Part shown: positions 6,718-59,912 of the stretch, one piece after another
Numbering within the stretch: position 1 is the first letter of the stretch
Layout: each line of letters begins with the position of its first letter
Source: Bdellovibrionales bacterium
Lineage (GTDB): Bacteria > Bdellovibrionota > Bdellovibrionia > Bdellovibrionales > JAKFYE01
Direction of reading: 5' to 3'
Assembly (NCBI GenBank): GCA_965116215.1
Contig: OZ220494.1
Location: 1,563,992-1,627,991, forward strand
DNA length: 64,000 nucleotides
Program-made: the position numbers and the translations under genes
The notes under the pieces: model-generated
Told to the model about the DNA's origin: nothing
Database searches by the model: none
The model's input: the letters and a program-made list of their open reading frames with translations, nothing else

Positions 6718-8064
6718 TTAGTTGTGGTTCAATGGCGAGCTATGGGTTGGTGTAGGAGGCTTTAAAAGTCTACTTATTTTAAGATAATTATAAGCTTGAA
6801 AAATTTGAAAATCTTTTTGTAAGAGTTCAATATGTTTTGTAGAGTTTAGAGATTCATCTGGTACACTTGAAAATGCAGGCTTTCTATCTTTTTCTAGATG
6901 TCCCTTTATGTCTTTTTCACGGCGAACCTTTTTGTGTATGAGTGCTTTTTTATATATTTCTGGATCTATTTCATCCAGTTCAATATCGGGACGAATGCCT
7001 TCAACTTGGATGGATTTACCAAGAGGTGTATAGTATCGTGCGACAGTGAGTTTAAGAGCGGATCCATCATCTAACTTGACGACAGATTGTATAGAGCCTT
7101 TGCCAAAACTCCTTTTTCCCATAATAATTGCTCGCTTGTTATCTTGTAGGGCCCCTGCTAAAATTTCACTGGCACTCGCTGAATATTCATTTATCAATAA
7201 AATTAAAGGAAAGTTTTCTAATGTCCCTTCTCTCTTTGCTACAAAACTTTCTTTATTTTTTCCATCACGCCCAATAATATTAACGATTTCCCCTTTATTA
7301 AGAAAAAGATCACTTAATCTTACAGCTTGACGGAGCAAGCCTCCCGGATTGGATCGCAAATCGATGATAAGACCTGCAATTTTACCGTGTGTGTTTTTGT
7401 GTTTCTTTATTTTTTTAGTGAATTGATCATATGTGCTTTTAATGAAGTTGGTGATCTTTAAGTACATATAGCCATTATCTAAGTTGGTATATTTAACAGA
7501 TTGAATTTTAACCTTTGCTCGCTTGATAGAAAAATCCCTGGGCTTTTTAAAACCTTCTCTGAGGATACCTAATGTTATTTTTTTCTTTTTATTTCTTAGC
7601 ATAACAGCCGCTTCAGCTAGAGTTAATCCCTTTGTGGACTGACCCTCGATGGATACAATTTGATCTCCAGGTTTAATGCCTGCTTTCCATGCGGAAGAGT
7701 CTTCTACAGGGGAAATAATAGTGAGTTTCCCATCTCTTACAATAATTTCAATCCCTAGACCACCAAACTCCCCGTTGGTTTTGAGTCGAAAATTCTTATA
7801 AATTTCAGGTGATAAAAAGCTTGTATGAGGATCTAGCTCTGAGAGCATTCCTTTGATGCCTCCATAAATGAGTTCCTCAAAGTCTACATTCTCTACATAG
7901 TGTTTTTCTACTAGATTTAAAACCTTAGTGAAGATTTCTAACTGCTCATATCTTGTTAACAATTTATCTTGCTGTGCTGGCGAGTGATTTTGTTTTTTAG
8001 CAAAGGAGTGATGGCTAAAGAAGAGCAATAAAATAATAAAATATATCCACTTCTTTTTTGTCAT
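6718..8064 (-). CDS. ctpA: Carboxy-terminal processing protease (S41 family) with PDZ domain
   Basis: Signal peptide, PDZ block (GGLGIEI...AGIKPGDQIVSIEG), and S41 catalytic region (LINEYSASASEILAGALQD...GKGSIQ). Confidence 0.9.
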   Translation of the reverse strand: MTKKKWIYFIILLLFFSHHSFAKKQNHSPAQQDKLLTRYEQLEIFTKVLNLVEKHYVENVDFEELIYGGIKGMLSELDPHTSFLSPEIYKNFRLKTNGEFGGLGIEIIVRDGKLTIISPVEDSSAWKAGIKPGDQIVSIEGQSTKGLTLAEAAVMLRNKKKKITLGILREGFKKPRDFSIKRAKVKIQSVKYTNLDNGYMYLKITNFIKSTYDQFTKKIKKHKNTHGKIAGLIIDLRSNPGGLLRQAVRLSDLFLNKGEIVNIIGRDGKNKESFVAKREGTLENFPLILLINEYSASASEILAGALQDNKRAIIMGKRSFGKGSIQSVVKLDDGSALKLTVARYYTPLGKSIQVEGIRPDIELDEIDPEIYKKALIHKKVRREKDIKGHLEKDRKPAFSSVPDESLNSTKHIELLQKDFQIFQAYNYLKISRLLKPPTPTHSSPLNHN

Positions 8065-9191
8065 AATAGATCTCTAGAGTTAAATTTTGTTTTTTTATTG
8101 ATCCATTTTTTGGGGTCTAAAGGCTCCGAGAGGTAACGTATTTCAAAATAGCTGCCAGAGCCAAAGAATGGACCAACATGTCCCGAAAGAGCTAGTGTTT
8201 CCCCCTCTTCGACTGTATCACCTTTGCTGACAAGGAGTTTTTTGTTGTTCCCATAGATGGAAAAGTAATTGTGACCATGGTCTATAATGATGCTTTTTCC
8301 AAATGTTTTAACCGGCCCTGCAAATTGAACATCTCCTTTAAAGATACTTTTTACTGGCTGACTCAATGGACTTTTAAAAAATAATCCTTTTAGAGGAAGG
8401 CCTAATCCAGTGTTTTGATAGTGAATTTTTCTAATAATAGATCCATTTAAGGGATAACCAAGATGCCCTTGTCGTTCAAAAAACGAATCTTTTAAAAATT
8501 GCTTAAGAGTGCGAAGTTGATGTGTGGAATACTTATTCTTTTCCATCATCTGCATATATTTTATTTTTATGTCTTTAAGTTTTTTTAGAGCTAGAGACCT
8601 TTTTGTATTAATTGTTTTTATCCGTGAAAGGTTTTTAGATTTGTGCTTTTCAAGCTGTGCCTTTTTCTTTAATAAATCTTTTTTTAGGGCAACAAATTGG
8701 TTCATATTTTTTTCTTGTTTTCTAAAAGATTTTTTAAAAAGATTCTTATTATTTTTATAGGTTTCTAATAGCTTAAAACTGTTATTTTTGATCTCTTGAT
8801 TGGAATTGTGATTCCCTATTGTTTCTAATCGACTCTTCCATGGATAAAGTATTCGAAATAGATTGTCTTTTTTGTGAGATGATATCTGCTTTATTTCTTT
8901 AGTGTGTTTTTCTTTATCTTCTATTTTTTTGTTCAGTTGTTCAATAAGCCTGTTTAAAGAGGATAGGCTCTTTTTGGAGCGATCTGTGTGATGTTCTGTG
9001 TGCTGTATTTCTTTATTGACTTTTTTTATTTGGTCTATGATTTCATTTAGTTTTCTGAGTGTTGAGAGTCTTTTTACCTCTTGTTTGTGAAAAAGTTGCT
9101 CTTTGGATTTAATGGAATCGACTATCTCAGATAGAGAAATGGAATAAAGAGGGGGTGTGATAAACAGTATCAAGTAAACCCATTTATACAT
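8061..9191 (-). CDS. M23 peptidase with long coiled-coil N-terminus (EnvC-like murein hydrolase activator)
   Basis: A Lys/Glu-rich coiled-coil region precedes a C-terminal LytM/M23 domain (GKSIIIDHGHNYFSIYGNN...GDTVEEGETLALSG). The likely start is the ATG at 9191 (MYKWVYLILF, signal-like, GGAG 6 nt upstream). The longest ORF begins with TTG at 9269. Confidence 0.8.
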   Translation of the reverse strand: MYKWVYLILFITPPLYSISLSEIVDSIKSKEQLFHKQEVKRLSTLRKLNEIIDQIKKVNKEIQHTEHHTDRSKKSLSSLNRLIEQLNKKIEDKEKHTKEIKQISSHKKDNLFRILYPWKSRLETIGNHNSNQEIKNNSFKLLETYKNNKNLFKKSFRKQEKNMNQFVALKKDLLKKKAQLEKHKSKNLSRIKTINTKRSLALKKLKDIKIKYMQMMEKNKYSTHQLRTLKQFLKDSFFERQGHLGYPLNGSIIRKIHYQNTGLGLPLKGLFFKSPLSQPVKSIFKGDVQFAGPVKTFGKSIIIDHGHNYFSIYGNNKKLLVSKGDTVEEGETLALSGHVGPFFGSGSYFEIRYLSEPLDPKKWINKKTKFNSRDLL

Positions 9192-9287
9192 GGATGCTCC
9201 ATTGAGAGAAGACAGCCTTGACACTGTGAGATTTCTCAAGAATATGAGTTGCAATGAAATAAAGCCCAATCATTAAGATATATTGTA

Positions 9288-37819: not shown

Positions 37820-38557
37820 TTACAAAGCTTCGTCGATAATATTTTTTAACTCATCTTCAAGTTTCTTAAGATCCTTAACAAATAAAGTGTGTTTTTTACT
37901 TAAAAGTTTTCTCAAGCGAGGTCCATTCTTATATGATGATATTATCCACTTTGCACTGTCTCTAAAGAACTTGACCGTGAAATCAAAAGTTTTCTCAAAT
38001 GCTTGCTGCAGCGGTAATTCAGCTTTAAGATTTAAACCCACATCTACTAGGAATATTCCCATAGCCATTGAATAAGCCCCTATACCAACCCCCTGAGCAA
38101 AAGCAGCCGCCCCTCCCCCTACAGCAGCACCTCCAGCAATCGATGGGTTTGTGATTAACGGGATTGTGAATAACGCTAATACTAAAATGGGAACACCTAT
38201 ACTCGTTAAGTTAGTTTTTATTAAAAATTTCTTTAGTGGTTTTATACCTATTGGATGGACCAACTTTTCGCAATCTTGACCTAGATAACACTTGTAAAGA
38301 TGAACTCTTTTTAAGGGTTGGTTGGAACTAGGGGGGACTGTGTAGTAAATGGTTTCAGTCCTAATCTCAAGCCATTCCGACTGAGAGAGTGGCTCAATTC
38401 CTTTTTGATAAATCCTAGTTATTTGCCAGTGTTTATACTGCAAATTGCTAATAGGCGGATGAGTTCCTTCTTGCGTCTGTTTAGTTGTTTGGGCCAAAGA
38501 GCCTGTAGAGAGTGTTAATCCCACAGCTAGAGTGAAAATGAATTTTAAAGGGTTCAT
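37820..38557 (-). CDS. Signal-peptide / Gly-Ala-rich (glycine-zipper-like) membrane protein, paralogue 1
   Basis: 245 aa. The signal peptide MNPLKFIFTLAVGLTLSTGSLAQ is nearly identical to that of the 39288-39893 product. It has a Cys pair (YKCYLGQDCEKLV), the segment AGGAAVGGGAAAFAQGVGIGAYSMAMGIF, and a conserved C-terminal RLRKLLSKKxxLFV. Confidence 0.7.
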   Translation of the reverse strand: MNPLKFIFTLAVGLTLSTGSLAQTTKQTQEGTHPPISNLQYKHWQITRIYQKGIEPLSQSEWLEIRTETIYYTVPPSSNQPLKRVHLYKCYLGQDCEKLVHPIGIKPLKKFLIKTNLTSIGVPILVLALFTIPLITNPSIAGGAAVGGGAAAFAQGVGIGAYSMAMGIFLVDVGLNLKAELPLQQAFEKTFDFTVKFFRDSAKWIISSYKNGPRLRKLLSKKHTLFVKDLKKLEDELKNIIDEAL

Positions 38558-38609: not shown

Positions 38610-38625
38610 AGCAAGTGCTGTGCTA
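38610..38625 (-). promoter_or_regulatory. Degenerate sigma-54-type promoter (TAGCACAGCACTTGCT; GG->AG at -24)
   Basis: Positional homologue of the consensus promoter at 39946-39961. The same -12 TTGCT is present but the -24 element reads TAGCAC. Confidence 0.45.
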
Positions 38626-38708
38626 GGTTATAGAGTTTGGTTTTTATTTGAAAAAAAAGGGGATTGTTTTTAAAAGGAGCCAACTTCTTGTTTAAAACAA
38701 AACAATGA

Positions 38709-38728
38709 GCAAACTTTATACAGTTTGC
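38709..38728. promoter_or_regulatory. Perfect 20-bp palindrome GCAAACT-TTATAC-AGTTTGC (candidate activator binding site)
   Basis: The 7-bp arms are exactly complementary. It lies 84 bp upstream of the -24 element of paralogue 1 and directly next to the (AAAAC)2 tract. Confidence 0.4.
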
Positions 38729-38856
38729 CAAGTTCTTTTACATTTTTTCATCATTTCAAAGAGTCTGTCTTTAGTTGTCAGGCTTTTAGATTTTATATGT
38801 CACAAATCCCTATATCAGCTCTTTAGAGCCAAGAGTTTTAAGATTTTGCCAGACAA

Positions 38857-39040
38857 GGGGAGGAAAGGGTTTTTGTCTTTGTCTTAAAGCGAGTTTTCCA
38901 AAGCGCAGGGGCGTATCTTCAAGGAGATACAGTTTATTTTCAACTTGAGTATATGAGCTTTAGTCTGGAGCGGAAAAGGATTTTTATCTTTCTTTTAAAG
39001 GGAGTTTTCCAAAGTATAGGGGTGTATTTGTAATTGAGAT
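38857..39040 (+). repeat. Two tandem direct half-copies of the palindromic-element left arm (copy B)
   Basis: ggaaagggtttttgtctttgtcttaaagcgagttttccaaagcgcaggggcgtatcttc and ggaaaaggatttttatctttcttttaaagggagttttccaaagtataggggtgtatttg. Both resemble 40430-40490. Confidence 0.7.
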
Positions 39041-39287: not shown

Positions 39288-39893
39288 TTATCGTACGTAG
39301 TTTCTGGGCTCCTCTCTTTTCAAAATTATCTTTTTAATAAGATATTCTAAGTTCTGCTCAAGCTGCTCAATATTGCGAACAAATAAGACATCCTTTTTAC
39401 TTAAAAGTTTTCTCAAACGAGAGCCTTCTGTTAAATTTCTAGTTAGATTATGTCCTCCTTTCTTCATTGTTGTTGCTCCTCCTATTAATGAAACTGCACC
39501 CGTGGCTCCTGCTGCTAACGTTGTTGATGGCACTAGGACGACTGCACCCACCATCACTCCTGCCCCGAAGAGCAAAGCTCCGACTCCGAATACGCCAGCT
39601 TTCAAGTTCTCCTGTTTTAACGTGTTTCTTAACTCATTTAAGGTCACCACTTCATCAACCAAGGGTTCACAACTCTCATTGTTATGACGCTCATCTCTAG
39701 TGCATGTATAGACCACAATGGCTGTGAGTTCTTCATTATTTACCTGTTCAGATGCTTTTCGGACCTCAATCCATTTGAGAAAAGAGGGGTCAGCATTTTT
39801 TTCTTTTATTGTGGTGGTTTTTTGAGCCAAAGAGCTGATAGAGAGTGTTAATCCCACAGCTAGAGTGAAAATGAATTTTAAATAGTGATTCAT
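39288..39893 (-). CDS. Signal-peptide / Gly-Ala-rich (glycine-zipper-like) membrane protein, paralogue 2
   Basis: 201 aa. It has signal peptide MNHYLKFIFTLAVGLTLSISSLAQ, a Cys pair (YTCTRDERHNNESCEPLV), the segment GVFGVGALLFGAGVMVGAVV...AAGATGAVSLIGGA, and C-terminal RLRKLLSKKDVLFV. A strong AGGAGG lies upstream of the ATG. Confidence 0.7.
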   Translation of the reverse strand: MNHYLKFIFTLAVGLTLSISSLAQKTTTIKEKNADPSFLKWIEVRKASEQVNNEELTAIVVYTCTRDERHNNESCEPLVDEVVTLNELRNTLKQENLKAGVFGVGALLFGAGVMVGAVVLVPSTTLAAGATGAVSLIGGATTMKKGGHNLTRNLTEGSRLRKLLSKKDVLFVRNIEQLEQNLEYLIKKIILKREEPRNYVR

Positions 39894-39945: not shown

Positions 39946-39961
39946 AGCAAGTGTTGTGCCA
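39946..39961 (-). promoter_or_regulatory. Consensus sigma-54 (RpoN) promoter TGGCAC-AACAC-TTGCT
   Basis: The minus-strand sequence TGGCACAACACTTGCT matches TGGCAC-N5-TTGCW at every specified position. Its -12 GC lies about 54 nt upstream of the ATG at 39893. Confidence 0.8.
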
Positions 39962-40034: not shown

Positions 40035-40269
40035 AAAACAAAACAAAACAAAACAAAACAAAACAAAACAAAACAAAACAAAACAAAACAAAACAAAACA
40101 AAACAAAACAAAACAAAACAAAACAAAACAAAACAAAACAAAACAAAACAAAACAAAACAAAACAAAACAAAACAAAACAAAACAAAACAAAACAAAACA
40201 AAACAAAACAAAACAAAACAAAACAAAACAAAACAAAACAAAACAAAACAAAACAAAACAAAACAAAAC
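40035..40269. repeat. Perfect pentanucleotide microsatellite (AAAAC)47, read as (GTTTT)47 on the gene strand
   Basis: 235 bp with no interruption, counted directly and consistent with the KQNKT-periodic ORF in the track. The homologous position at 38694-38703 has 2 units. Confidence 0.98.
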
Positions 40270-40274
40270 AATGA

Positions 40275-40294
40275 GCAAACTTTATACAGCTTGC
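40275..40294. promoter_or_regulatory. 20-bp near-palindrome GCAAACT-TTATAC-AGCTTGC (homologue of 38709-38728, one arm mismatch)
   Basis: Located immediately distal to the microsatellite, 314 bp upstream of the sigma-54 -24 element. Confidence 0.35.
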
Positions 40295-40424
40295 CAAATT
40301 GTTTTACAGTTTTCCATCATTTCAAAGAGTCTGCCTTTAATGGTCAGGCGTTTAGATTTTATATGTCACAAATCCCTATATCAGCTCTTTAGAGCCAAGA
40401 GTTTTTAGCTTTTACCAGACAATA

Positions 40425-40557
40425 GGGGAGGAAAGGATTTTGATCTTTCTATTAAAGCGAGTTTTTCAAAGCGCAGGGCGTATTTCGAAGAAAGACGAGC
40501 CTGCGGCCTTTGAAGCTGTTTGAGCTTGAAGGGGAAGATAAAAATCCTTTTCCTACA
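40425..40557 (+). repeat. ~135-bp palindromic (MITE/REP-like) element, copy C
   Basis: Arms GGAAAGGATTTTGATCTTTCTATTAAAGC ... GCTTGAAGGGGAAGATAAAAATCCTTTTCC. It aligns end to end with the reverse complement of 25301-25440. Confidence 0.8.
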
Positions 40558-40981: not shown

Positions 40982-41941
40982 TTATATTTTACTTCGCTCC
41001 TTAAGACTTAAAGGATGGTGTTTTTCTAAGGTGGTGCGTAGAGAATCAAAATCTAAGTGCGTGTACTTTTCTGTTGTTTTCAATGAAGAGTGTCCAAGCA
41101 GATCCTGTATGGTACGTAGATCTGCTCCTCCACGCAGAAGATGGGTGGCGTAGCTATGCCTTAGGGCATGAGGAGAGAGGGGCCGCAAAAGTCCTGCTTG
41201 AGTGCCACAGGATCTGATAAGGGTATAGGCCTGTCGTTCAGAGAGTTTGGGGTTTAAAAGATATCCTGTTTTTTTATTAGAGGTTTTCAATTCTTCAGTG
41301 AGTATGGAAGGCAGACTAATATAGCGTTCTTTAGATCCCTTTCCTAATATGCGAAGTTTGGATTTCTCTAATATGACGTCTTTCCACTGTGAGTGACAGG
41401 CTTCGGAAACTCTTAGTCCACCGCCATAGAGAAGTAGAAAGAGCCGTCGTTTTCTAATCAAAATGTCCGACTTGGGCTGATCTTTAAACGCTTTTTTAAA
41501 ATAGTTCAAAACAGCTAACACTTCATCCAGGGAGAGGTATCGTGGGAGTTTTTCATCAACCTTTGGGAGAGTGATGGTGGTCGAGAGATCATGAACTAAA
41601 TGTCCTTCTTCAAACAAAAACCGCAAAAAACTTTTAAGGGTTGAAAATTTTCTCTGGCGTGTGGAAATAGCTAAATCTGACCAAATTTTCTTCCCCACAT
41701 CGATGAGCAGTTGACAGTTTAGATCTAAATTTTCCAATTTTTGGGACCTTTTATTTTTTTCAATATAATCGGCTAGTTGTAAAAAATCGGAAGAATAGGC
41801 CCGAAGAGTCTCAGGACTAAAGGACTTTAAATTCTCTAATGATTCCAACCAAATATCAAAATACTTGGACAGGAAAGGTTTTGGGGCTTTGTCAGAATTT
41901 CTCACTAAAATTTCCAAGATAATGCATTTTTTTACTTGCAT
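40982..41941 (-). CDS. Tyrosine site-specific recombinase, XerC/XerD family
   Basis: Catalytic signature GGGLRVSEA...HALRHSYATHLL...LLGHSSLKTTEKYTH, plus an N-terminal SAM-like domain (TLRAYSSDFLQLADYI). Confidence 0.88.
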   Translation of the reverse strand: MQVKKCIILEILVRNSDKAPKPFLSKYFDIWLESLENLKSFSPETLRAYSSDFLQLADYIEKNKRSQKLENLDLNCQLLIDVGKKIWSDLAISTRQRKFSTLKSFLRFLFEEGHLVHDLSTTITLPKVDEKLPRYLSLDEVLAVLNYFKKAFKDQPKSDILIRKRRLFLLLYGGGLRVSEACHSQWKDVILEKSKLRILGKGSKERYISLPSILTEELKTSNKKTGYLLNPKLSERQAYTLIRSCGTQAGLLRPLSPHALRHSYATHLLRGGADLRTIQDLLGHSSLKTTEKYTHLDFDSLRTTLEKHHPLSLKERSKI

Positions 41942-42080
41942 TTATTATATTCCTCCAGTAGTTTTATGCAACGTTTCAAAATGATGCATATTGTTATTTT
42001 ATGGGGGGAGGGATATAAGGACAGCCTACGGGGTGGGTAGGTTAAAAATATAAACCATCAATGAAAGATAGGCGGTACGT

Positions 42081-43157
42081 ATGTCAGAACGTGAAAGTTT
42101 TATACTCCCATCCAATAATCAGAGTTCCACATTTAGTCAAAAGGGGCAGGTCCGCAATAAAAATAAGGTGAATATCATCTATAAGTCTGAGGTGATTGAT
42201 CAGCTTTTGAAGATGATTGATCGTGTGGCCCAAAGCGATGCCAGCGTTCTCATTTTAGGAGAGTCGGGAACAGGTAAAGAACTTATAGCTAAGGCTCTTC
42301 ATGAGAAGAGCACACGAAAGTATAAACCTTTTGTGCCTATTAATTGTGGTGCTTTAAGGGAGTCGCTTTTAGAGAGTGAACTTTTTGGTCATGAAAGAGG
42401 TGCCTTTACAGGGGCCTATATGCGAAAAACAGGTTTAGCTGAAGTCGCTAATGGTGGAACATTATTTTTGGATGAAATAGGCGAACTCACTCCGGGTATT
42501 CAGGCTAAACTTTTGCGTTTTATTCAAGAGGGCGAGATTTATAGAGTGGGAGGAAAAGATCCTATCAAGGTGGATATTCGCTTGGTGAGTGCAACAAATA
42601 AAGATTTAGAATCAGAAGTTGTGCGAGGAATATTTAGGGAAGATCTTTTCTATAGAATTAATACTATTACTGCACAAGTTCCTGCTCTCAGGCGTCGAAA
42701 AGAAGATATTCCTTTACTTATCCAGCATTTCTTAACTTCAGGTTCTTATAGGTATCTCAATAGAGGACATCAGGTGAGCCCTGAAGCTATGGAGATTTTG
42801 CAGAAATATGATTGGCCGGGAAATATTCGTGAATTGCAAAACATTTGTGAACGCACACAAATATTGACAGAAGGTCACACTATTATGCCTGGAGACTTGC
42901 CTGATAGTATTAGACATCCGGATCAAAAGACTGTCATTGATGATTATGATCCGACTCTGACTCTTCATGAGCTAGAGAGACGTTATATCCTTAAGGCTTT
43001 AAGTTATTTTGAGGGTAATAAAACACGAGCGGCTCATGCTCTCGGTATTACGATCAAAACACTTTATAATAAGCTCCATGAATATGGTGAATTTGAAAAC
43101 TATGCTATTCATTCAAAACCCAAATCTTCCTCTATAAAGAAAACAGCATCAAATTAA
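42081..43157 (+). CDS. Sigma-54-dependent transcriptional activator lacking a receiver or sensor domain (AAA+ core + Fis-type HTH only)
   Basis: The AAA+ core begins about 35 aa from the N-terminus (GESGTGKELIAKALH; the sigma-54 contact loop ESELFGHERGAFTGA; WPGNIRELQN). The C-terminal HTH is NKTRAAHALGITIKTLYNKL. Confidence 0.88.
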   Translation: MSERESFILPSNNQSSTFSQKGQVRNKNKVNIIYKSEVIDQLLKMIDRVAQSDASVLILGESGTGKELIAKALHEKSTRKYKPFVPINCGALRESLLESELFGHERGAFTGAYMRKTGLAEVANGGTLFLDEIGELTPGIQAKLLRFIQEGEIYRVGGKDPIKVDIRLVSATNKDLESEVVRGIFREDLFYRINTITAQVPALRRRKEDIPLLIQHFLTSGSYRYLNRGHQVSPEAMEILQKYDWPGNIRELQNICERTQILTEGHTIMPGDLPDSIRHPDQKTVIDDYDPTLTLHELERRYILKALSYFEGNKTRAAHALGITIKTLYNKLHEYGEFENYAIHSKPKSSSIKKTASN

Positions 43158-43179
43158 GTCTCGTTTTGCAATAATAGGA

Positions 43180-44616
43180 ATGATTATGGGCTTATTATTC
43201 AGGGTAAGGGTTTTCTTACTTTTCATTGTTTGTTTTTCTTTTTCCTTATTATATGGGGCCGATGAAAAGGATTATAGAAATCTACGTCCATCTGTTGGGA
43301 TTGTTCAGTCCATTAAGGGTTATGGGACTGGTTTTTTTATAACAGAAAATTTATTTGTCACTGCCTACCATAATATTCAAGCTTCAGATAATGCGAGTAA
43401 TGAGCGATTGGGAAGAGATCCGTTGCGTGTCTATACTCTGGGGAAAAAGGATTATGGAAGAGTTCTAGTTGTTGATCCTCAAAATGATTTGGCGATTATT
43501 AAGATGCAAAGAAATGATTATAAGCCACTCAGTATAGGAAGTGATACAGATATTATTCGGGGTAAGGAAACTTTTACTATTGGTTATCCCCCCGATATTG
43601 CTTTGATCAATAGAGGAGAAAATGAAGCAGTTATAAGAGCTGTTGTGGCTCAGGGCTTTATTGGGATGAAGATGGGGAATGAAATCTTTGGTATTACAGC
43701 TTTTGCTTCAAAAGGGAGTAGTGGCTCCCCTGTTTTTTCAGAGGATTTGAAAGTCGTTGGGGTAGTTGTATTAATTACTCCAAAATCAATTTCAGGCTAT
43801 CAGACTTTTGTTACGCCGATCCATAAATTAAAGACTCTTATTGATAGAAATAAAGACCTTTTAGAAAGAGAGGGTGGAATGGGTTTTGGTCATATCTCTT
43901 CTGAGCCGTTGAAGAGGCGTGCTTTTGATGCCGATGTCAAAACAGCAGAGGATATGTTTATTTTGGGTTTAATATATAAAGAGGGTTTGAGACATAGACG
44001 GCCTAACTTTCAGAAAGCTCATTATTGGCATGAACGTGCAGCGAAGAGTGGATATAGAGATGCTGCTTTTTCCGTGGCCCAAATGTATTATACGGGCAAA
44101 GGGGTGAAAAAAGATTTTCAAAAGGCGTTTTACTGGTTTCAGGTGGCCGCAACTCATGGACATAGGGAGTCGCAATTTCATGTTGCACTTATGCACTATC
44201 GAGGGGAGGGAACAGCTCAGAACTTTTCAAAGGCCTTTGAAGGTTTTAAGAGCCTTGCAGAACAGAGGAAGTATAGAGGGGCATCAGCTCAGGTGGCGTT
44301 AATGTATTATGCGGGCAAAGGGGTAAAAAAAGATTTTCAAAAGGCATTTTACTGGTTTCAGGTGGCTGCAACCCATGGACATAGGGACTCTCAGTATAAT
44401 GTTGCACTTATGCACTATCGAGGGGAGGGAACAGCTCAGAACTTTTCAAAGGCCTTTGAAGGTTTTAAGAGCCTTGCAGAAAAGGGACATAAAATAGCGC
44501 AACATGATCTGTCTGTAATGTATGCTAGAGGAGAGGGAGTTTTAAAAAATCTTAAAAAAGCAACATATTGGTGGAAGAAGAGCAAAGGGGAAGAAGGTTC
44601 ACAGTGTTTTTATTAA
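43180..44616 (+). CDS. Secreted trypsin-like (S1) serine protease domain fused to C-terminal Sel1/SLR repeats
   Basis: Signal peptide. The catalytic triad context is VTAYHN, NDLAIIK and GSSGSPVF. There are at least 5 Sel1-type repeats (A..MY..G.GV.KD..KA..W...AA..G). The start lies 22 nt after the activator gene. Confidence 0.8.
   Translation: MIMGLLFRVRVFLLFIVCFSFSLLYGADEKDYRNLRPSVGIVQSIKGYGTGFFITENLFVTAYHNIQASDNASNERLGRDPLRVYTLGKKDYGRVLVVDPQNDLAIIKMQRNDYKPLSIGSDTDIIRGKETFTIGYPPDIALINRGENEAVIRAVVAQGFIGMKMGNEIFGITAFASKGSSGSPVFSEDLKVVGVVVLITPKSISGYQTFVTPIHKLKTLIDRNKDLLEREGGMGFGHISSEPLKRRAFDADVKTAEDMFILGLIYKEGLRHRRPNFQKAHYWHERAAKSGYRDAAFSVAQMYYTGKGVKKDFQKAFYWFQVAATHGHRESQFHVALMHYRGEGTAQNFSKAFEGFKSLAEQRKYRGASAQVALMYYAGKGVKKDFQKAFYWFQVAATHGHRDSQYNVALMHYRGEGTAQNFSKAFEGFKSLAEKGHKIAQHDLSVMYARGEGVLKNLKKATYWWKKSKGEEGSQCFY
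44083..44487 (+). repeat. Tandem 219-bp (73-aa, two Sel1 units) near-identical duplication inside the protease-Sel1 gene
   Basis: cgggcaaaggggt(g/a)aaaaaagattttcaaaaggc... recurs at 44093 and 44312. About 175 bp align with roughly 13 substitutions and no indels. Confidence 0.85.
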
Positions 44617-46719: not shown

Positions 46720-48135
46720 CTATTCATTGGCTGCTTCATCTCTTAAATCATCATCTGCTGAACCCAGTCCATACTTATCAACTCTGTATCTCATGGATCG
46801 AAATGTAATATTTAAAAGCTTAGCAGCCTTTTTTTTGACTCCCGAGCTTTTGTGGATCGCTTTAATCAATAACTCTTTTTCAATTTGTCCAATGATCTTT
46901 TCTAGATCAATTCCCTCATTTGTAATTTCAATTTCATGACTAGAGGCTATTTTTCGTCCAGATGATGTATTGACAAAAGGGGGTAGAGACTCAGGTAATA
47001 TCACAGAGCCACCCTCAAGAGCCACTGTCCTTTCAATAATATTTTCTAATTCACGGACATTTCCCGGATATTGATAAGACTTTAATGTACTCATGGCTTC
47101 ATCAGAGATGCCGCTAATACTCTTATTCAATCGCTCATTGTATTTTTTTAAAAAATGATGAGCTAAAGTAGGGATATCTACAGATCGATTTCTCAACGGA
47201 GGTGTTTTAATTAAAATCACATTCAATCTATAATAAAGATCTTCTCTAAATTGCCCTGAGCGAACCATTTCCTCTAAGTTTCTATTTGTAGCAGCTATAA
47301 TCCTCACATTTATTTTAATATCTTCTGTTGCTCCTATTCGGCGAATAGTTCTTTCTTGAATGGCTCTGAGCAGTTTCACTTGAATATTCAGTGGAAGCTC
47401 TCCAACTTCATCGAGAAAGAGTGTGCCGCTGTTAGCAACTTCAAAGAGACCTAACTTATCGGAAACTGCACCCGTGAAAGCTCCTTTTTTATGACCAAAC
47501 ATCTCTGACTCTATAAGATTTTCAGGAATAGCCCCACAGTTAACAGTTACAAAGGGGTTTTCTTTTAAGGGACCACTGTAATGAATAGCCTTGGCTACCA
47601 TTTCTTTGCCTGTTCCACTTTCTCCAATAATTAATACATTTGTGGGAGACTGAGAAACACGTTCAATGAGATCATAAATTTTATGCATTTCATCTGAATT
47701 ACCTACTAAATTTTTGAAGCTGTATTCTTTATTTAACTCCTTCTTTAAATTTCTGTTTTCAATTTCTAGATTTTTACTTCGGAGCGCATGTTTAATATTA
47801 ATTCTGACTTCATCAATTTTAAATGGTTTTGTGATATAGTCATAGGCTCCCATTTTCATGATTTCCACGGCGGACTCTGTAGTTCCAAATGCCGTAATGA
47901 TTATAAATAGCGTGTCAGGACAATTATTTTTTACGTATTCTAAGACTTCAGTTCCCGTTAGGTTAGGCATTTGCAAATCTGATATGATCAGATCAAAGGC
48001 TCTCTTTTTTATCATATCTATTGCCACTTGACCATCTTCAGCGAGGGTGACATCATAGCCTTCTTTTTTGAGCATGATATCTAAAAATTCTCTTATGGAT
48101 TCCTCATCATCAATAACAAGAATTCGTGGCTTCAC
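46720..48135 (-). CDS. pilR: Sigma-54-dependent response regulator, PilR-like (REC + AAA+ + HTH)
   Basis: Receiver domain (ILVIDDE...DLIISDLQMP), AAA+ core (GESGTGKEMVAKAIH, GAFTGA) and a Fis-type HTH. It lies directly downstream of a PilS-like kinase in the pil cluster. Confidence 0.85.
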   Translation of the reverse strand: MKPRILVIDDEESIREFLDIMLKKEGYDVTLAEDGQVAIDMIKKRAFDLIISDLQMPNLTGTEVLEYVKNNCPDTLFIIITAFGTTESAVEIMKMGAYDYITKPFKIDEVRINIKHALRSKNLEIENRNLKKELNKEYSFKNLVGNSDEMHKIYDLIERVSQSPTNVLIIGESGTGKEMVAKAIHYSGPLKENPFVTVNCGAIPENLIESEMFGHKKGAFTGAVSDKLGLFEVANSGTLFLDEVGELPLNIQVKLLRAIQERTIRRIGATEDIKINVRIIAATNRNLEEMVRSGQFREDLYYRLNVILIKTPPLRNRSVDIPTLAHHFLKKYNERLNKSISGISDEAMSTLKSYQYPGNVRELENIIERTVALEGGSVILPESLPPFVNTSSGRKIASSHEIEITNEGIDLEKIIGQIEKELLIKAIHKSSGVKKKAAKLLNITFRSMRYRVDKYGLGSADDDLRDEAANE

Positions 48136-48152
48136 TAAGCACTCCCTTCCCT

Positions 48153-49832
48153 TTAGGCTATGAAACTTTTATTATCTAATTTTTTAGGTTTCTCTGCAAG
48201 TCTATTAAACTCTAAGATGAACTCAGTTCCTTTATTGATATCGCTGTTTACAAAAATCTGTCCTCCATGATGTTCAATAATCTTGTGAACTGTAGCAAGC
48301 CCGAGACCTGTGCCTCCTTTTTTTGTTGTTAAAAAAGGCTCAAAAAGTCTTGCTAGTATTTCTGGAGGCATACCTATGCCATTATCTTGGACAATGACGA
48401 CTAGAGTGCCTCTTTTTCGAAAATAACTTTTGACATGTAATATGGGGTTCTCTGTTTTATTCATTGCTTGATAACTATTAATAAAAAGATTTAAGAAAAC
48501 TTGCTTTAATTTATCATATGTTCCTTCAATTTGATGATTCGTATTTAATTCCAATTTGTGTTTTACATTTTTATTTAAATTTTCATTCATCTTTATCATC
48601 GAAAGGCATTCTAGGATTAATGTATTTATATCTATTGGATCAAAGCGTTCCTCCTCTTTTTTTGTAAAGTTTAGAAAGTCATTGATAAGCCCGTTTAATC
48701 TGTCAATCTCTCTTAATGTAATAGTCATAAGTTTATTATCTTCGGGAGATGCTTTATCTTTCATCAACTGTATACTTCCGCTAATACTAGCCAATGGATT
48801 TCGTATTTCGTGTGCAATGCTTGCTGATAATTGACCAATAGCAGCTAGCTTTTCTGATCGTCTCATAGCCTTTTCAAGCCGTTTAATTTGAGTGAGGTCT
48901 TCAAATATTAAAACATAGCCACAAAACAGACCTTCGCGATCATAGATAGAACATGAATTGATTCCTAAGAGCAATTTTTCATCTTTTGAGTTCACATAAG
49001 GCATTTCAAAACGTTCTGTTTTTTTCTCTTGATAAGCTGTTTTATAAACTTCAATCACTCGATCCATTTCCGGGTGAATCTGTTTAAGACTTAAACCTAT
49101 AATTTCCTTCTGATGTCCTAATATTTTTAAGGCAGACTTATTTGCGTGAAGGATTTGAAAATTTTTATCAATGGCCATTAAGCCAATTGTGAGGTTTTCG
49201 ACAATCATTTCATTTAAGTTTTTTAGGATTTTAATATCTTTTTCTTTTTTAATGAGAATATCGCCCATTAAGTTGAGCTGTTCACTTAAATGTCCACTTA
49301 GGGCAGCTATAACAAAGAATGCCAAGTTGTTAATGATTAAGGAAAGGTAAAGGCTTGGCCCCTCCAATTTGGAATCTAGAGCCAATAATAAACTGAAACA
49401 AATAGATGTTAGGAGAGATAAAGTAAAGGCACCGTGCTTTTGGAAAATGAATCCACATAGAATAATATTTACAAGATACATGAACAAAAATATGGGTTGT
49501 GCAATATCAGTATAGAAAATTAGCCCTGTGATAAAAAGAGTATCTATAAAAAATAAAAATGCAGACCAAATATGAGTGTGCTTTTTTTCTATAAAGAATA
49601 GATATAGAGAATGAATAATAAAATTTCCTGCCAACATACAGTATAAAGGTAGAATGACTTCTATATTTATAAACTCTGGTTGTTTTAGTTGAAAGAGAAC
49701 TGTCAGTAATGTAATAGTACTTAAAAATAAAATCCGTACTGTTTCAATGATAAGTAATCGCTTTTTAAATCTCTGGGAGTCTTTTTCGAGATCTGTGGTC
49801 ATATGAAATATTTGAAAAAATAATGACCTCAT
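48153..49832 (-). CDS. pilS: Sensor histidine kinase, PilS-like (about 6 TM helices, PAS, HisKA, HATPase_c)
   Basis: H-box SASIAHEIRNPLASI and G-boxes (DNGIGM; GGTGLGLATV). The likely start is the ATG at 49832 (MRSLFF), 4 nt after the pilC stop. The longest ORF (49880) would overlap pilC. Confidence 0.8.
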   Translation of the reverse strand: MRSLFFQIFHMTTDLEKDSQRFKKRLLIIETVRILFLSTITLLTVLFQLKQPEFINIEVILPLYCMLAGNFIIHSLYLFFIEKKHTHIWSAFLFFIDTLFITGLIFYTDIAQPIFLFMYLVNIILCGFIFQKHGAFTLSLLTSICFSLLLALDSKLEGPSLYLSLIINNLAFFVIAALSGHLSEQLNLMGDILIKKEKDIKILKNLNEMIVENLTIGLMAIDKNFQILHANKSALKILGHQKEIIGLSLKQIHPEMDRVIEVYKTAYQEKKTERFEMPYVNSKDEKLLLGINSCSIYDREGLFCGYVLIFEDLTQIKRLEKAMRRSEKLAAIGQLSASIAHEIRNPLASISGSIQLMKDKASPEDNKLMTITLREIDRLNGLINDFLNFTKKEEERFDPIDINTLILECLSMIKMNENLNKNVKHKLELNTNHQIEGTYDKLKQVFLNLFINSYQAMNKTENPILHVKSYFRKRGTLVVIVQDNGIGMPPEILARLFEPFLTTKKGGTGLGLATVHKIIEHHGGQIFVNSDINKGTEFILEFNRLAEKPKKLDNKSFIA

Positions 49833-49836
49833 TGGT

Positions 49837-55117: not shown

Positions 55118-55858
55118 TTAAAATAAGTCTGTCTCATCGTCATCATCATCTGTGGAAAGGTTATCATAGTCATCATCTATGAAGTCATTTTCCAGATCCT
55201 CAAGATCATCATAGTCATTTGATTGTAGGTCATCATCTGTGTTTTCAAAATGTCTTTCATCCATATCATCGAATCTTGAAGATATTTCTTTATTATCCTC
55301 ACTTTTTATCGTTCTTGTTGTTTCAAGATTGGCCAGAGGGTTGGTTATTGAATGTTTGGGAGGGTTTTCGTCTTTTGTAATTTCGGCAAGGCTTCGGACT
55401 GTGGGTTTATTGAACTCTTTTCGGGAGGTGGGTTTTTTAGAAGATTGTTTTTTCCCAGTTGTTTTTTTCTTTGTCTTTTTTTGGGTTAAGGTTTTGGTTT
55501 TCTTCCGAGAGGCCCTTTTTTTAGAAGCTCGTTTTTTCCCGGTCGTTTTTTTCTTTGCCTTTTTTTGGGTTAAGGTTTTGGTTTTCTTCCGAGAGGCCCT
55601 TTTTTTAGAAGCTCGTTTTTTCCCGGTCGTTTTTTTCTTTGCCTTTTTTTTGTTTAAAGATTTGGCTTTCTTTCTGGAGGTGGTTTTCTTTGAAGTTCGT
55701 TTTTTCCCGGTTGTTTTTTTCTTTGCCTTTTTTTTGTTTAAAGATTTGGTTTTCTTCCGAGAGGCCCTTTTTTTAGAATATTGGTTTTTCCCAGTTGCTT
55801 TTTTCTTTGCTATTTGTTTTCGAGTCTTTTTACTTTTTATTCGTCTCTTCTTGGCCAT
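55118..55858 (-). CDS. Lysine-rich, histone H1-like repeat protein with strongly acidic C-terminal tail
   Basis: The N-terminal ~150 aa are almost entirely K/R/T/S/A/G in 28-aa repeats (KKAKKKTTGKKRASKKRASRKKTKTLTQ). The C-terminal ~90 aa are D/E-rich and end in DDDDDETDLF. Confidence 0.75.
   Translation of the reverse strand: MAKKRRIKSKKTRKQIAKKKATGKNQYSKKRASRKKTKSLNKKKAKKKTTGKKRTSKKTTSRKKAKSLNKKKAKKKTTGKKRASKKRASRKKTKTLTQKKAKKKTTGKKRASKKRASRKKTKTLTQKKTKKKTTGKKQSSKKPTSRKEFNKPTVRSLAEITKDENPPKHSITNPLANLETTRTIKSEDNKEISSRFDDMDERHFENTDDDLQSNDYDDLEDLENDFIDDDYDNLSTDDDDDETDLF
55440..55815. repeat. 84-bp tandem repeat (about 4.5 units) encoding the 28-aa basic repeat
   Basis: The landmark TTAA(G/A)G(G/A)TTT(T)GG recurs at 55486, 55570, 55654 and 55738 (period 84). 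Confidence 0.85.
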
Positions 55859-55971: not shown

Positions 55972-57156
55972 TCAGGGGATGATATTATCTAAGGTCCGTG
56001 CTATTGATGGGGGGAAAATCAGTGCGAGATAGACCCCTCCCGACACGCCGCCACTAGATGGGACAAGAGCAAAATAGCCAATGGTTTGTCGCTTAGATTT
56101 TGTGTGAATAGGAAATCTGAGCCCTACTGGCCAGGAATAGTCTTCAATGGGATAATAGATCGCAAAGGCCCCTTTTCCCAGATAAAGATGAATAGTTTCA
56201 TTACCTTTGCTCAAATGTATTCCTACGCTGGGGAGTTCTCCTCCAGGAATTCCAGGCAAGGGTTGGCCGTTGGGTAATCTTTTAATAATGCCCCCTGGTG
56301 GACCATGGAAGACATAGGGTAATGGCATATAAATTTCCATGGCGGGAGTACCGTTCCTGTGGGTAAAGGTACTATAGGCCCCTGGCATTCCAGGAATCGG
56401 AGTGTAGGGTGCGGTCCCTCCCAGTGGGGGGATGAGGGTGGGTGCGCTCAGTATAACCGCATTGTTGCGCCTATCTAGCCGTATAACCTCATGGTTATAA
56501 AAGGGACCTCTATTGAGCCTATAGCTCATATCTAGCTGATCTAGTGGGTGAGTCGTTGTATAGCGATTGGGTGGGTTGCTGTAGTTATAAGGTGATCCGT
56601 TGTATCTATTATAGTTGGTGTAGGGATTGGGAGTATTGCGAGCATTGCGATTGTAATAGAAGTTGTTGTCGTAGGGATTGGGTGGGTTGCTGTAGTTATA
56701 AGGTGAGTCGTTGTATCTATTATAGTTGGTGTAGGGATTGGGAGTATTGCGATTGTAATAGAAGTTGTTGTCGTAGGGATTGGGTGGGTTGCTGTAGTTA
56801 TAAGGTGAGTCGTTGTATCTATTATAGTTGGTGTAGGGATTGGGAGTATTGCGATTGTAATAGAAGTTGTTGTCGTAGGGATTGGGTGGGTTGCTGTAGT
56901 TATAAGGTGAGTCGTTGTATCTATTATAGTTGGTGTAGGGATTGGGAGTATTGCGATTGTAGTAGGAATAGTCCTCATTGTCGTTATCGTCATTGTTGTT
57001 GTAGCCTTGGTGATCGCAGTGAGTTAGGGTCAATAGGCAGAGGGGTAAAAAGAGACTGAGGATCAGCCTTTTTGGTGTTTTATTACGGAAAATCATAAGC
57101 CAGAACTTCTTCTGGGCTTCAGTCGATGAATGCAAAAGATCTGTTGCAGAAATCAT
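55972..57156 (-). CDS. Exported (possibly lipo-) protein with Asn/Tyr/Pro-rich 34-aa tandem repeats and a Gly/Pro-rich C-terminal domain
   Basis: Signal-like LILSLFLPLCLLTLTHC, then four copies of YYNRNTPNPYTNYNRYNDSPYNYSNPPNPYDNNF. An alternative start is the ATG at 57096 (MIFRNKTPKR). Confidence 0.7.
   Translation of the reverse strand: MISATDLLHSSTEAQKKFWLMIFRNKTPKRLILSLFLPLCLLTLTHCDHQGYNNNDDNDNEDYSYYNRNTPNPYTNYNRYNDSPYNYSNPPNPYDNNFYYNRNTPNPYTNYNRYNDSPYNYSNPPNPYDNNFYYNRNTPNPYTNYNRYNDSPYNYSNPPNPYDNNFYYNRNARNTPNPYTNYNRYNGSPYNYSNPPNRYTTTHPLDQLDMSYRLNRGPFYNHEVIRLDRRNNAVILSAPTLIPPLGGTAPYTPIPGMPGAYSTFTHRNGTPAMEIYMPLPYVFHGPPGGIIKRLPNGQPLPGIPGGELPSVGIHLSKGNETIHLYLGKGAFAIYYPIEDYSWPVGLRFPIHTKSKRQTIGYFALVPSSGGVSGGVYLALIFPPSIARTLDNIIP
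56559..56965. repeat. 102-bp tandem repeat: three copies identical by eye (56649-56954) plus one variant copy
   Basis: The unit gattgtaatagaagttgttgtcgtagggattgggtgggttgctgtagttataaggtgagtcgttgtatctattatagttggtgtagggattgggagtattgc starts at 56649, 56751 and 56853. Confidence 0.9.
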
Positions 57157-57477
57157 TTCTCTGGTGTGTTCCCCTAAAAAGGAATCGGACTATGGTTGTA
57201 GGATTTTTACTTAATCTTATAAAGTCAGAGGGCCTTTTGCTTTGATATTTTAAAACTAGACATTCAGATGGGAGGTCAAACATGATTTTCATCCCAGTAC
57301 TTGTTGTAAAATACTTAAAATAGATCATTAGACAAAATATTTTTGAACCACTACTTAGCTAAAAGGCTTTTGATTTTGTCACAGGGATTAAGAGGAGAAA
57401 TGGTTATAAAACCTCAACGATGACTGTTCCCAACCAATAGGATGAAAAAGTTAATATATGAAGATTATGCCCTTAGC

Positions 57478-57795
57478 CTAATAGGGATAGCCATAATAAG
57501 GATAGCCATAATAAGGCTGTAGGCAGCGACGTCCATAGCTAACAGAGCCATTTTCATCTGTGTATTGAAGGGCTAGATTATTACAAGAGGGGTCGCGGTA
57601 TCTGGGGTCGTTATAGTATCCATACTGATTACCGTATTGGTTGCCATACTGATTACCATACTGGTTACCATATCCATATCCATCGTCATCACAACCAGAT
57701 ATCAACGTTATAGATACAGCCATTGATAAGATAATAAACGTATTTAAAATCACGCTTTTTAACTTTTTTGATATTTTGTGCTGGCAGTGAACCAT
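57478..57795 (-). CDS. Small lipoprotein with (GNQY)4 repeat and Tyr/Gly-rich C-terminus
   Basis: Lipobox LISGC, followed by DDDGYGY(GNQY)4GYYNDPRY...YYGYPYYGYPY; 105 aa. Confidence 0.65.
   Translation of the reverse strand: MVHCQHKISKKLKSVILNTFIILSMAVSITLISGCDDDGYGYGNQYGNQYGNQYGNQYGYYNDPRYRDPSCNNLALQYTDENGSVSYGRRCLQPYYGYPYYGYPY
57622..57669. repeat. 12-bp tandem repeat x4 encoding (Gly-Asn-Gln-Tyr)4
   Basis: atactgattacc / gtattggttgcc / atactgattacc / atactggttacc. Confidence 0.85.
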
Positions 57796-59872: not shown

Positions 59873-59912
59873 AGATATAGTCAATAGAAATGTAAAGCGA
59901 TAGAGGCTTATT

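Follow-up and report, generated by a model that had tools for sequence, protein, structure and literature searches.

A sensor-less sigma-54 activator and an adjacent exported protease-Sel1 protein of Bdellovibrionales: probably neighbours without regulatory partnership

Two adjacent genes of a Bdellovibrionales genome, encoding a sigma-54 activator (enhancer-binding protein) that lacks a sensory domain and an exported serine protease that carries Sel1 repeats, are probably functionally independent neighbours whose local adjacency involves no regulatory partnership. The adjacency is most likely ordinary, and both genes most likely belong to known kinds. The view that they constitute a new activator/protease module, proposed in an earlier reading of the sequence without database searches (hereafter the sequence-only reading), fails, and the importance of the pair as a module is thus small. 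Positions given below refer to the whole stretch of DNA analysed, which is 64,000 nucleotides in length (hereafter the window).

The activator, its relatives and its promoter

The activator gene (42081–43157, forward strand) was assigned on the basis of Pfam, NCBIfam, sequence motifs, and orthologues and encodes a protein of 358 aa. A 31-aa N-terminal tail is followed by an AAA+ core (Sigma54_activat, PF00158; residues 32–197, E = 4.3e-69), a lid (AAA_lid_14; residues 204–283), and a Fis-type HTH domain (HTH_8, PF02954; residues 295–335, E = 6.5e-13). The Walker A (GESGTGKE, residue 60), GAFTGA (residue 107), and Walker B (LFLDEI, residue 128) motifs are all intact. Pfam yielded no matches ahead of residue 32, and the intergenic DNA upstream of the gene, at 139 nt, is too short to hold an undetected N-terminal domain. 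The receiver-less layout described in the sequence-only reading is therefore real (31 residues before the AAA+ core, compared with the approximately 35 claimed, and no sensory domain by Pfam), and it is also kept family-wide: approximately 37 orthologues with 64–91% identity and lengths of approximately 340–400 aa share the same sensor-less architecture. More than 100 proteins, all of approximately 350 aa, show 70–90% identity to the activator, and among genome loci, 35 encode proteins in the 64–91% range, beyond which identity falls steeply to 52% or less. The HTH sequence GNKTxAAxxLGITIKTLYNKLHEYGEF is near-invariant among the orthologues. As regards a possible c-di-GMP response of the FleQ kind, the FleQ motif following Walker A is Arg-Asn; the activator contains Lys-Ala at this place. 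No description of an order-wide sensor-less activator of Bdellovibrionales was found in literature searches on Bdellovibrio sigma-54 activators.

In the window, the activator gene is flanked by genes for a Xer-like recombinase, the protease-Sel1 protein, a VTT-domain protein, and a GT4 glycosyltransferase (Pfam and NCBIfam). The recombinase gene (40982–41941, reverse strand) is divergent from the activator gene and encodes a XerC/D-like tyrosine recombinase (Pfam Phage_integrase), the matches of which to the NCBIfam XerC and XerD models are below the cut-off. Its homologue is adjacent and divergent to the activator gene in 37 of the 39 related loci, with an intergenic region of 60–390 nt; the constant partner of the activator is thus this recombinase and not the protease-Sel1 gene. 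The gene downstream of the activator varies by lineage, being convergent in about half of the 39 related loci, and the same-strand genes found at this place are mostly non-homologous to each other. The order Xer, activator, variable genes, c6, flagellin, abhydrolase, and rib genes, which is found in 25 loci, is ancestral. The c6-like, abhydrolase, and rib genes of the window are located at 55972–61627, approximately 13 kb further downstream. An integron-like interpretation of the Xer-like gene and the variable genes was rejected, as the conserved activator sits between the two; the integron-integrase score of the recombinase, which is far below the cut-off, also opposes it.

The predicted promoter region of the activator gene (41936–41990, forward strand) consists of a sigma-70-like −35 element (TTGCAT, 41936–41941), a −10-like element (TTTTAT, 41962–41967), and a partly palindromic element in the leader, AACGTTTCAAAATGATGCATA (41970–41990). 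Its putative function is suggested by conservation, as the layout −35 TTGCAA / −10 TATATT / (G)TATCAAAnTGAGAC is repeated in approximately 23 orthologous intergenic regions. In 600 kb of related loci, five of the six near-perfect copies of the leader palindrome (GTATCA-N3-TGAKAC) are located in activator leaders. The best additional copy in the window (9282–9302) has no sigma-54 promoter beside it.

The protease-Sel1 protein and its linkage to the activator

The downstream ORF (43180–44616, forward strand) encodes a 478-aa HtrA-like S1C serine protease with five to six Sel1 repeats, which is predicted to be exported. Position 43186 is the likely true start, as its spacing to an AGGA ribosome-binding site is better; the public annotation, a 100% match, also begins there and gives a protein of 476 aa. 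Pfam assigned residues 49–195 to Trypsin_2 (E = 3e-18) and five further stretches to Sel1 (E = 4.7e-42). The triad residues H64, D103, and S181 lie within the motifs TAYH, NDLAI, and GSSGSP, respectively, all of which are conserved among homologues, and the N-terminus reads, by eye, as a Sec signal peptide. In the AlphaFold model (pLDDT 86.8), an HtrA/DegP-like fold is followed by 12 helices corresponding to six Sel1 repeats. Foldseek matched this model to MucD, HtrA1, and Deg5 (E of approximately 1e-11) as well as to Rv0983, and the protease domain matched HtrA sequences in the PDB with E of approximately 1e-4, while the Sel1 half matched solved structures (PDB 6ok3, 6deh, and 8sxq) with E values of 1e-43 to 1e-57. 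No PDZ domain was found in the protein by Pfam or in the model, and Sel1 repeats fill residues 250–470. The claimed combination of an exported S1 protease with at least five Sel1 repeats was thus confirmed by Pfam, the triad, and the model.

The fusion had also been called unusual, which did not hold, as the architecture is widespread: a homology search yielded dozens of Trypsin_2 plus Sel1 proteins, and the 2008 survey of Tripathi and Sowdhamini already lists Tryp-(Sel1)6, represented by the uncharacterised protein YP_374752.1 of Pelodictyon luteolum (PMC2605481). That protein has the same domain combination but comes from a different phylum, and the protease-Sel1 gene differs from it in having been amplified in a genome of approximately 1.8 Mb: six further paralogues with 42–47% identity are present on the same 1,824,586-bp contig, giving at least seven in all. 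These paralogues are fast-diverging. The gene also contains a recent internal tandem duplication (44082–44481, forward strand; 219-bp unit, 1.8 copies, 94% matches by Tandem Repeats Finder), the unit of which equals two Sel1 repeats, and the duplication can also be recognised in the translated peptide.

The gap between the activator and protease-Sel1 genes is 22 nt when the ORF start at 43180 is used, in agreement with the sequence-only reading in respect of both ORFs and the gap, or 28 nt from the start at 43186, and no terminator-like site was found within it. A shared transcript, which had also been claimed, is therefore plausible in this genome from the short gap; as a conserved linkage, the pairing did not stand. 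Adjacency of the two genes was observed at three of 40 genomic places, namely the window and the loci L001 and L005, all of which belong to one sub-lineage. L001 and L005 are the nearest relatives, with activators 90–91% and recombinases 85% identical to those of the window. There, the activator gene is followed by three tandem protease-Sel1 copies (approximately 36% identical to that of the window) after a gap of 250–311 nt, which in L005 contains a strong hairpin. In three other genomes, no activator gene adjoins the protease-Sel1 homologues, and no linkage beyond L001 and L005 was found in the 39 related loci. Lack of conserved linkage, one half of what the sequence-only reading had itself named as speaking against the pairing, is thus what was found. 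In each of the three genomes of the sub-lineage, the place downstream of the activator is taken by protease-Sel1 genes, indicating a neighbourhood that is stable at approximately the genus level.

The sigma-54 promoter of the paralogue pair and its candidate regulators

A consensus sigma-54 promoter, TGGCACAACACTTGC (39947–39961, reverse strand; −24 TGGCAC and −12 TTGC), precedes the ATG of paralogue B by 54 nt. It is the sole exact match to the sigma-54 consensus in the window, compared with 0.05 expected by chance, and lies 2.1 kb from the activator start, which bears out the earlier statement that the only such promoter of the window is located approximately 2 kb from the activator gene. 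Paralogue B (39288–39893, reverse strand; 201 aa), the gene downstream of this promoter, encodes a protein with a signal peptide, a two-cysteine domain, a Gly/Ala-rich hydrophobic segment, and a conserved C-terminal helix. Paralogue A (37820–38557, reverse strand; 245 aa) is preceded by a copy of the promoter (38611–38625) in which the −24 element reads TAGCAC. A perfect palindrome, GCAAACTTTATACAGTTTGC (38709–38728; GCAAAC-N8-GTTTGC), which is a candidate activator-binding site, is located at approximately −119, as calculated from its centre to the predicted start site of paralogue A. A one-mismatch copy (40275–40294) is present upstream of paralogue B at approximately −350, because a repeat tract, the microsatellite (AAAAC)x47 (40035–40271), lies between this copy and the consensus promoter and pushes the palindrome away; the paralogue A copy contains only 2 AAAAC units, compared with 47. 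Activator-binding sites of sigma-54 promoters are typically situated some 80–150 bp upstream; here, the palindrome at approximately −119 goes with the TAGCAC −24 element, whereas the perfect promoter has its palindrome at approximately −350.

The paralogues belong to a rare family of eight members, two of which are encoded in the window and six elsewhere in the genome; no member was found in any of the 39 related loci. Nor was a conserved sigma-54 promoter found within 10 kb of the activator gene in these 39 loci, and in L001 and L005 none was present near the activator gene even when two mismatches were allowed. GCAAAC-N8-GTTTGC gave two one-mismatch matches in the related loci (L002 and L016), both of which were judged to be chance occurrences. 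Two matches to the promoter cassette CACTTGCTCCTTAAACATAG in a metagenome collection were likewise attributed to chance, as both lie in coding DNA that bears no similarity to the cassette and its flanks.

The sequence-only reading named the sensor-less activator as the obvious candidate for control of the paralogue pair, but nothing was found that ties it to the promoter: the eight-member family is absent from the related loci while the HTH is invariant order-wide, no conserved sigma-54 promoter accompanies the orthologues, and a second activator is encoded 3.6 kb downstream. It is decidedly unlikely that the activator and protease-Sel1 genes form a functional operon in which the activator drives the paralogue promoter and is itself restrained by a trans-acting partner, as PspF and HrpS are. 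The short gap without a terminator, the missing sensory domain, the position of the activator as the one encoded nearest to the sole consensus sigma-54 promoter of the window, and the perfect palindrome at a typical enhancer distance in one copy are consistent with such an operon, but the linkage to the protease gene is missing in 36 of the 39 related loci, the paralogue family is missing even where the activator is 90% identical and its HTH identical, and six of the eight family members are encoded elsewhere. Furthermore, the leader palindrome of the activator is unlike GCAAAC-N8-GTTTGC and does not recur ahead of the sigma-54 promoter in the window, and an exported protease is poorly placed to gate a cytoplasmic ATPase. 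Still more doubtful is a variant in which this lineage has co-opted the activator for transcription of the eight-member family of exported membrane proteins via GCAAAC-N8-GTTTGC, with phase variation by the (AAAAC)n spacer and with protease-Sel1 in the same programme. If this were true, (AAAAC)n would be a length-variable enhancer-promoter spacer that switches single family members on and off, each 5-bp unit representing half a helical turn and thus altering the enhancer-promoter phasing, and the co-transcribed protease-Sel1 gene would join the same surface-remodelling programme.

There is somewhat less than an even chance that the paralogue promoter responds to another activator. One candidate is the PilR-like protein (46720–48135, reverse strand; REC-AAA+-HTH), whose gene has a PilS-like kinase gene and pilC/pilT/pilB-like genes as neighbours; the other is an activator encoded elsewhere, which would govern the entire eight-member family. 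The PilR-like gene and its kinase gene lie approximately 6.8 kb from the promoter, and with only two of the eight members in the window, the regulator must act remotely in any case. The distance of an activator gene predicts its targets only weakly in sigma-54 systems. The classical targets of PilR-type regulators are pilin genes, but the paralogues, in which the signal peptide is of the Sec type and a G/FTLIE motif is missing, are not pilins. Polar flagellates commonly possess flagellar sigma-54 activators, and the activator family might accordingly be a regulator of flagellar genes like FlbD, FleQ, and FlrA, its location reflecting an ancestral link to flagellin. A gene for a 277-aa flagellin is located one to six genes downstream of the activator in 25 of the 39 loci, and FlbD and FleQ are among the good sequence matches of the activator. 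Such a role nevertheless appears unlikely: the FlbD and FleQ scores are no better than those of NifA, AtoC, and NtrC, all being below the cut-offs; no sigma-54 promoter was found upstream of flagellin and no conserved one elsewhere in the 39 loci; and the lineage of the window has lost flagellin from the ancestral place but retained the activator at 90% identity.

Proposed functions and comparison with known systems

If the two genes are independent neighbours, as we consider probable, the activator would represent, in this genome, a stand-alone sigma-54 activator that is conserved throughout Bdellovibrionales and Pseudobdellovibrionaceae, built from a short, poorly conserved tail, an AAA+ motor whose GAFTGA loop is intact, and the near-invariant Fis-type HTH. 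It would be expressed from its own conserved sigma-70-type promoter, situated in the region shared with the XerC/D-like recombinase gene. Because it has no sensory domain, the protein would presumably form hexamers and remodel the sigma-54 holoenzyme by default, and its output would consequently be set by the amount made or by a trans-acting factor. The amount may be tuned by autoregulation via the conserved palindrome just downstream of the −10 element. The targets are probably located elsewhere in the genome; with a consensus sigma-54 promoter and a well-placed palindrome at a distance of 2.1 kb, a local target is nevertheless conceivable. The protease-Sel1 gene would sit at the edge of the variable segment found downstream of the activator in every lineage, and would probably be read through from the activator promoter as an accident of insertion. 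In the Sec-exported protease, the Sel1 solenoid may replace PDZ domains as the module for binding partners or substrates.

PspF of the Escherichia coli phage-shock system resembles the activator in that it has no regulatory domain at its N-terminus and is composed of an AAA+ core with a C-terminal HTH. PspF is autorepressing and binds to the divergent intergenic region of its own locus, and by analogy, the palindrome in the activator leader suggests PspF-like autoregulation. The activator differs from PspF in its extra 31-aa N-terminal tail and does not reach the cut-offs of the PspF equivalog models (TIGR02974, 269.6 versus 443.55; NF008622, 229.6 versus 529). In addition, PspF is associated with the psp operon and its inhibitor PspA, whereas no PspA domain is encoded near the activator gene and the divergent gene is Xer-like. 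HrpR and HrpS, the activators of type III secretion in Pseudomonas syringae, also lack a sensor domain, and HrpS is controlled in trans by HrpV (PMC5263251). These two are tandem paralogues acting together upstream of hrpL, whereas the activator is encoded by a single gene without secretion-system context; no adjacent paralogous activator gene was found in the window or at any orthologous locus. Control of the activator by a trans-acting protein, as with PspF or HrpS, would be conceivable by analogy.

Protease-Sel1 shares the chymotrypsin-like fold, the His-Asp-Ser triad, and periplasmic export (predicted in the present case) with the S1C proteases HtrA, DegP, and MucD. HtrA and DegP carry one or two C-terminal PDZ domains, in place of which protease-Sel1 contains six Sel1 repeats, and its scores against the HtrA/Do models are far below the cut-offs (NF047968, 25.9 versus 470; TIGR02037, 22.5 versus 416). 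Its C-terminal half shares the Sel1 solenoid with LpnE, LceB, HcpC, and c5321, but these are repeat-only proteins, to which protease-Sel1 adds an N-terminal protease domain.

A sensor-less activator with a near-invariant HTH that occurs throughout Bdellovibrionales is of modest value in its own right. Because the HTH is invariant, a binding site determined in one cultivable Bdellovibrio would hold for all members of the group and might expose a core sigma-54 programme of these predators. The small genome analysed here is rich in amplified, fast-evolving exported proteins, including at least seven protease-Sel1 genes and the eight members of the rare family, and such amplified exported families point to an interaction-heavy lifestyle. 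Among the relatives, ankyrin-repeat proteins were observed.

Sensor-less sigma-54 activator and its genomic neighbourhood

The 358-aa sigma-54 activator (42081..43157, + strand) contains a Sigma54_activat domain (residues 32–197, E 4e-69), an AAA+ lid (204–283), and an HTH_8 domain (295–335), with Walker A, GAFTGA, and Walker B all intact. Nothing in Pfam was matched before residue 32, and the 139 nt of intergenic DNA upstream leave no room for a missed sensory domain; the activator is thus without the usual gating domains, as the sequence-only reading had stated. A protein search retrieved >100 homologues (70–90% identity), all of ~350 aa and with the same domain set, and every one with a source name was labelled Bdellovibrionales or Bdellovibrionota. 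When a single genome per species was scanned, 35 orthologue loci (64–91% identity) were found in Bdellovibrionales and Pseudobdellovibrionaceae MAGs and in Bdellovibrio sp. HCB2-146, and below these the identity falls abruptly to ≤52%, in other phyla. Given the uniform ~350-aa orthologues and this sharp drop, the sensor-less architecture is the conserved state of an order-wide orthologous family rather than a local truncation. Alignment of 37 members shows a nearly invariant HTH region (GNKTxAAxxLGITIKTLYNKLHEYGEF) and an N-terminal tail of ~30 residues that is of low complexity, with just a loose (I/V)LP(S/T)..SQN pattern. None of the curated activator subfamilies in NCBIfam scores to its cut-off; the score for PspF is 269.6 against a cut-off of 443.55. 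PspF and HrpR/HrpS are known sensor-less activators, and the activator in the window is of this same kind.

Synteny was assessed by tblastn of the window proteins against 39 related loci and by clustering of all ORFs in those loci. An XerC/D-like tyrosine recombinase gene (40982..41941, − strand, in the window) is divergent from and adjoins the activator in 37 of the 39 loci, one of the two exceptions being a locus truncated at the 5′ end of the activator; intergenic regions span 60–390 nt. About half of the loci have a convergent gene 3′ of the activator, and same-strand genes at this position are mostly non-homologous between lineages. In 25 loci, zero to five variable genes are followed by a block made up of c6, flagellin, abhydrolase, and riboflavin genes. 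The c6-like, abhydrolase, and rib genes are present in the window at 55972–61627, separated from the activator by ~13 kb that contains protease-Sel1, VTT, GT4, PilR/PilS-like, pilC/T/B-like, and ribF genes; the pil-type block (46720–53849, − strand) encodes a PilR-like REC-AAA+-HTH activator, a PilS-like kinase, and pilC/pilT/pilB-like products. Flagellin is gone from its ancestral place, which in the 25 loci lies between the c6-like and abhydrolase genes.

We consider it probable that a stand-alone, order-wide sensor-less activator is paired with the Xer-like recombinase gene and that an unrelated accessory protease-Sel1 gene, a member of an amplified family, came to lie in the variable segment immediately 3′ of the activator. 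Both genes, their domains, and the promoter discussed below are as the sequence-only reading described; its interpretation is partly supported.

Several repeats were observed in this region. Within 55972–58062, the place of flagellin is taken by ~900 nt with short tandem repeats (57474–57516 and 57620–57672), the c6-like ORF (55972..57156) carries 102-bp tandem repeats at 56635–56965, and a 245-aa ORF without a Pfam match (55118..55858, − strand) contains an 84-bp tandem repeat at 55433–55810 (4.5 copies, 88% matches). A (TAGATG)x9 repeat lies within the pilB-like gene (53309–53362).

Protease-Sel1 gene and its linkage to the activator

The second ORF (43180..44616, + strand; 478 aa) was found 22 nt after the activator. 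The public annotation starts it at 43186 (476 aa, 100% match), a start better spaced to an AGGA ribosome-binding site. Confirming an S1-type protease with at least five Sel1 repeats, Pfam assigned Trypsin_2 to residues 49–195 and Sel1 to five stretches, and the triad (His64/Asp103/Ser181) lies within motifs kept among homologues. In the AlphaFold model (pLDDT 86.8), the N-terminal half matches the HtrA/DegP-type proteases MucD, HtrA1, Deg5, and Rv0983, and the C-terminal half matches the Sel1 solenoids LpnE, LceB, and HcpC; both kinds of match were also obtained at the sequence level. Unlike HtrA/DegP, in which PDZ domains recruit substrates, protease-Sel1 has no PDZ domain, and by analogy the Sel1 solenoid is most likely the part of the exported protease that binds partners or substrates. 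A 219-bp internal duplication (44082–44481; 1.8 copies, 94% matches), which adds two Sel1 repeats, points to a recent expansion of the array.

The fusion had been regarded as unusual, but dozens of Trypsin_2+Sel1 proteins were found by homology search, and a survey published in 2008 had already listed Tryp-(Sel1)6 among prokaryotic serine proteases (PMC2605481). Both sensor-less activators and Trypsin-Sel1 proteins are therefore known kinds, to which the window genes add members. The window copy is one of at least seven paralogues (42–47% identity) on a single 1,824,586-bp contig.

Conservation of the gene pair was not borne out: of the 39 related loci, just L001 and L005, which belong to the two nearest relatives (activator 90–91% and recombinase 84–85% identical to those of the window), have protease-Sel1 after the activator, and there it occurs as three tandem copies just ~36% identical to the window copy. 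Near the homologues in three other small genomes, no activator was found, the neighbours being hypothetical and mobile-type genes, which suggests that accessory or mobile DNA carries the family along. At these loci (L087–L089, on 1.4–2.3 Mb contigs), conjugation genes (TraG and TrbC), restriction genes (Mrr), AbiEii, and small hypotheticals were observed, and L089 has two protease-Sel1 copies in tandem. In L001 and L005, ankyrin-repeat proteins lie upstream of the recombinase gene, at the position of the paralogue pair in the window, and an IS110 transposase is also present in L001 (ankyrin-repeat/IS110 coordinates together: L001 1037–2413 and 12945–13649; L005 1448–3325 and 6413–7771). Combined with the amplification of Sel1 proteins and the contig size of 1.82 Mb, these features resemble the repertoire of host-associated bacteria.

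Transcription of the activator and protease-Sel1

The proposed co-transcription is plausible in the window, where read-through from the activator promoter into protease-Sel1 is likely because the 22–28-nt gap contains no terminator-like site. In L001 and L005 the gap is 250–311 nt and, in L005, contains a hairpin with a 15-bp stem. The activator has its own promoter, conserved in ~23 orthologous intergenic regions (−35 TTGCAA, with −10 TATATT ~17 nt on), and a partly palindromic element, (G)TATCAAAnTGAGAC, lies just 3′ of the −10 in these regions (window copies of both, 41936–41990). Five of the six near-perfect copies of this palindrome in 600 kb of related loci are in activator leaders. Given this concentration and a 7-3-7 geometry that matches that of NtrC sites, it is reasonable to suppose that the activator may negatively autoregulate through the element.

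A perfect palindrome, ATTGTATCA-GTT-TGATACAAT, was also observed at 9282–9302, with no sigma-54 promoter beside it. It precedes by 13 nt an M23 peptidase ORF (8061..9269, − strand), after which comes an S41/CtpB-like protease gene, and it fits the leader element of the orthologues better than does the window leader copy (41970–41990).

Consensus sigma-54 promoter and the two paralogues

The consensus sigma-54 promoter at 39947–39961 (− strand) was confirmed as the sole exact match in the window (0.05 expected). It lies 54 nt before the ATG of paralogue B (39288..39893, − strand; 201 aa), with a GGAGG ribosome-binding site between. Paralogues A (37820..38557, − strand; 245 aa) and B are ~90% identical in the regulatory cassette and signal peptide, and their coding bodies have diverged. 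They are the two members in the window of an eight-member family, all on the 1.82-Mb contig, characterized by a signal peptide, a two-cysteine domain, a Gly/Ala-rich hydrophobic stretch, and a conserved C-terminal motif, RLRKLLSKKDVLFV. Searching 1.84 billion representative proteins with a profile yielded just 16 clusters, and tblastn detected no member in the 39 related loci.

The cassette carries a palindrome, GCAAAC-N8-GTTTGC. In copy A (promoter and palindrome within 38611–38728) the palindrome is perfect, with its centre at about −119; this copy has TAGCAC as the −24 element and two AAAAC units. Copy B has the perfect promoter and a palindrome with one mismatch (40275–40294), displaced to about −350 by a perfect (AAAAC)47 microsatellite (40035–40271) between this enhancer-like site and the promoter. 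With 5 bp per unit, equal to half a helical turn, tract length could switch enhancer–promoter phasing.

The sensor-less activator may drive this promoter, and had been named the obvious candidate regulator of the paralogue pair, but their 2.1-kb proximity is the sole tie between the two, and four observations count against it. Throughout the order, which otherwise lacks the paralogue family, the activator HTH is invariant; no sigma-54 promoter lies close to the activator in L001 or L005; the leader palindrome is unlike that of the cassette and does not recur ahead of the sigma-54 promoter; and the window encodes a second activator, the PilR-like protein (46720–48135). A model in which the activator controls a phase-variable family, using an enhancer whose distance is set by the microsatellite, is in our view improbable.

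A ~55-nt repeat, AGGGGAGGAAAGGGTTTTTGTCTTT...TTTTCCAAAGCGCAGGG, is present upstream of both cassettes, twice in one (38856–38910, 38967–39021, and 40424–40478), and an inverted partial copy lies near the 3′ side of the recombinase gene (40524–40553).
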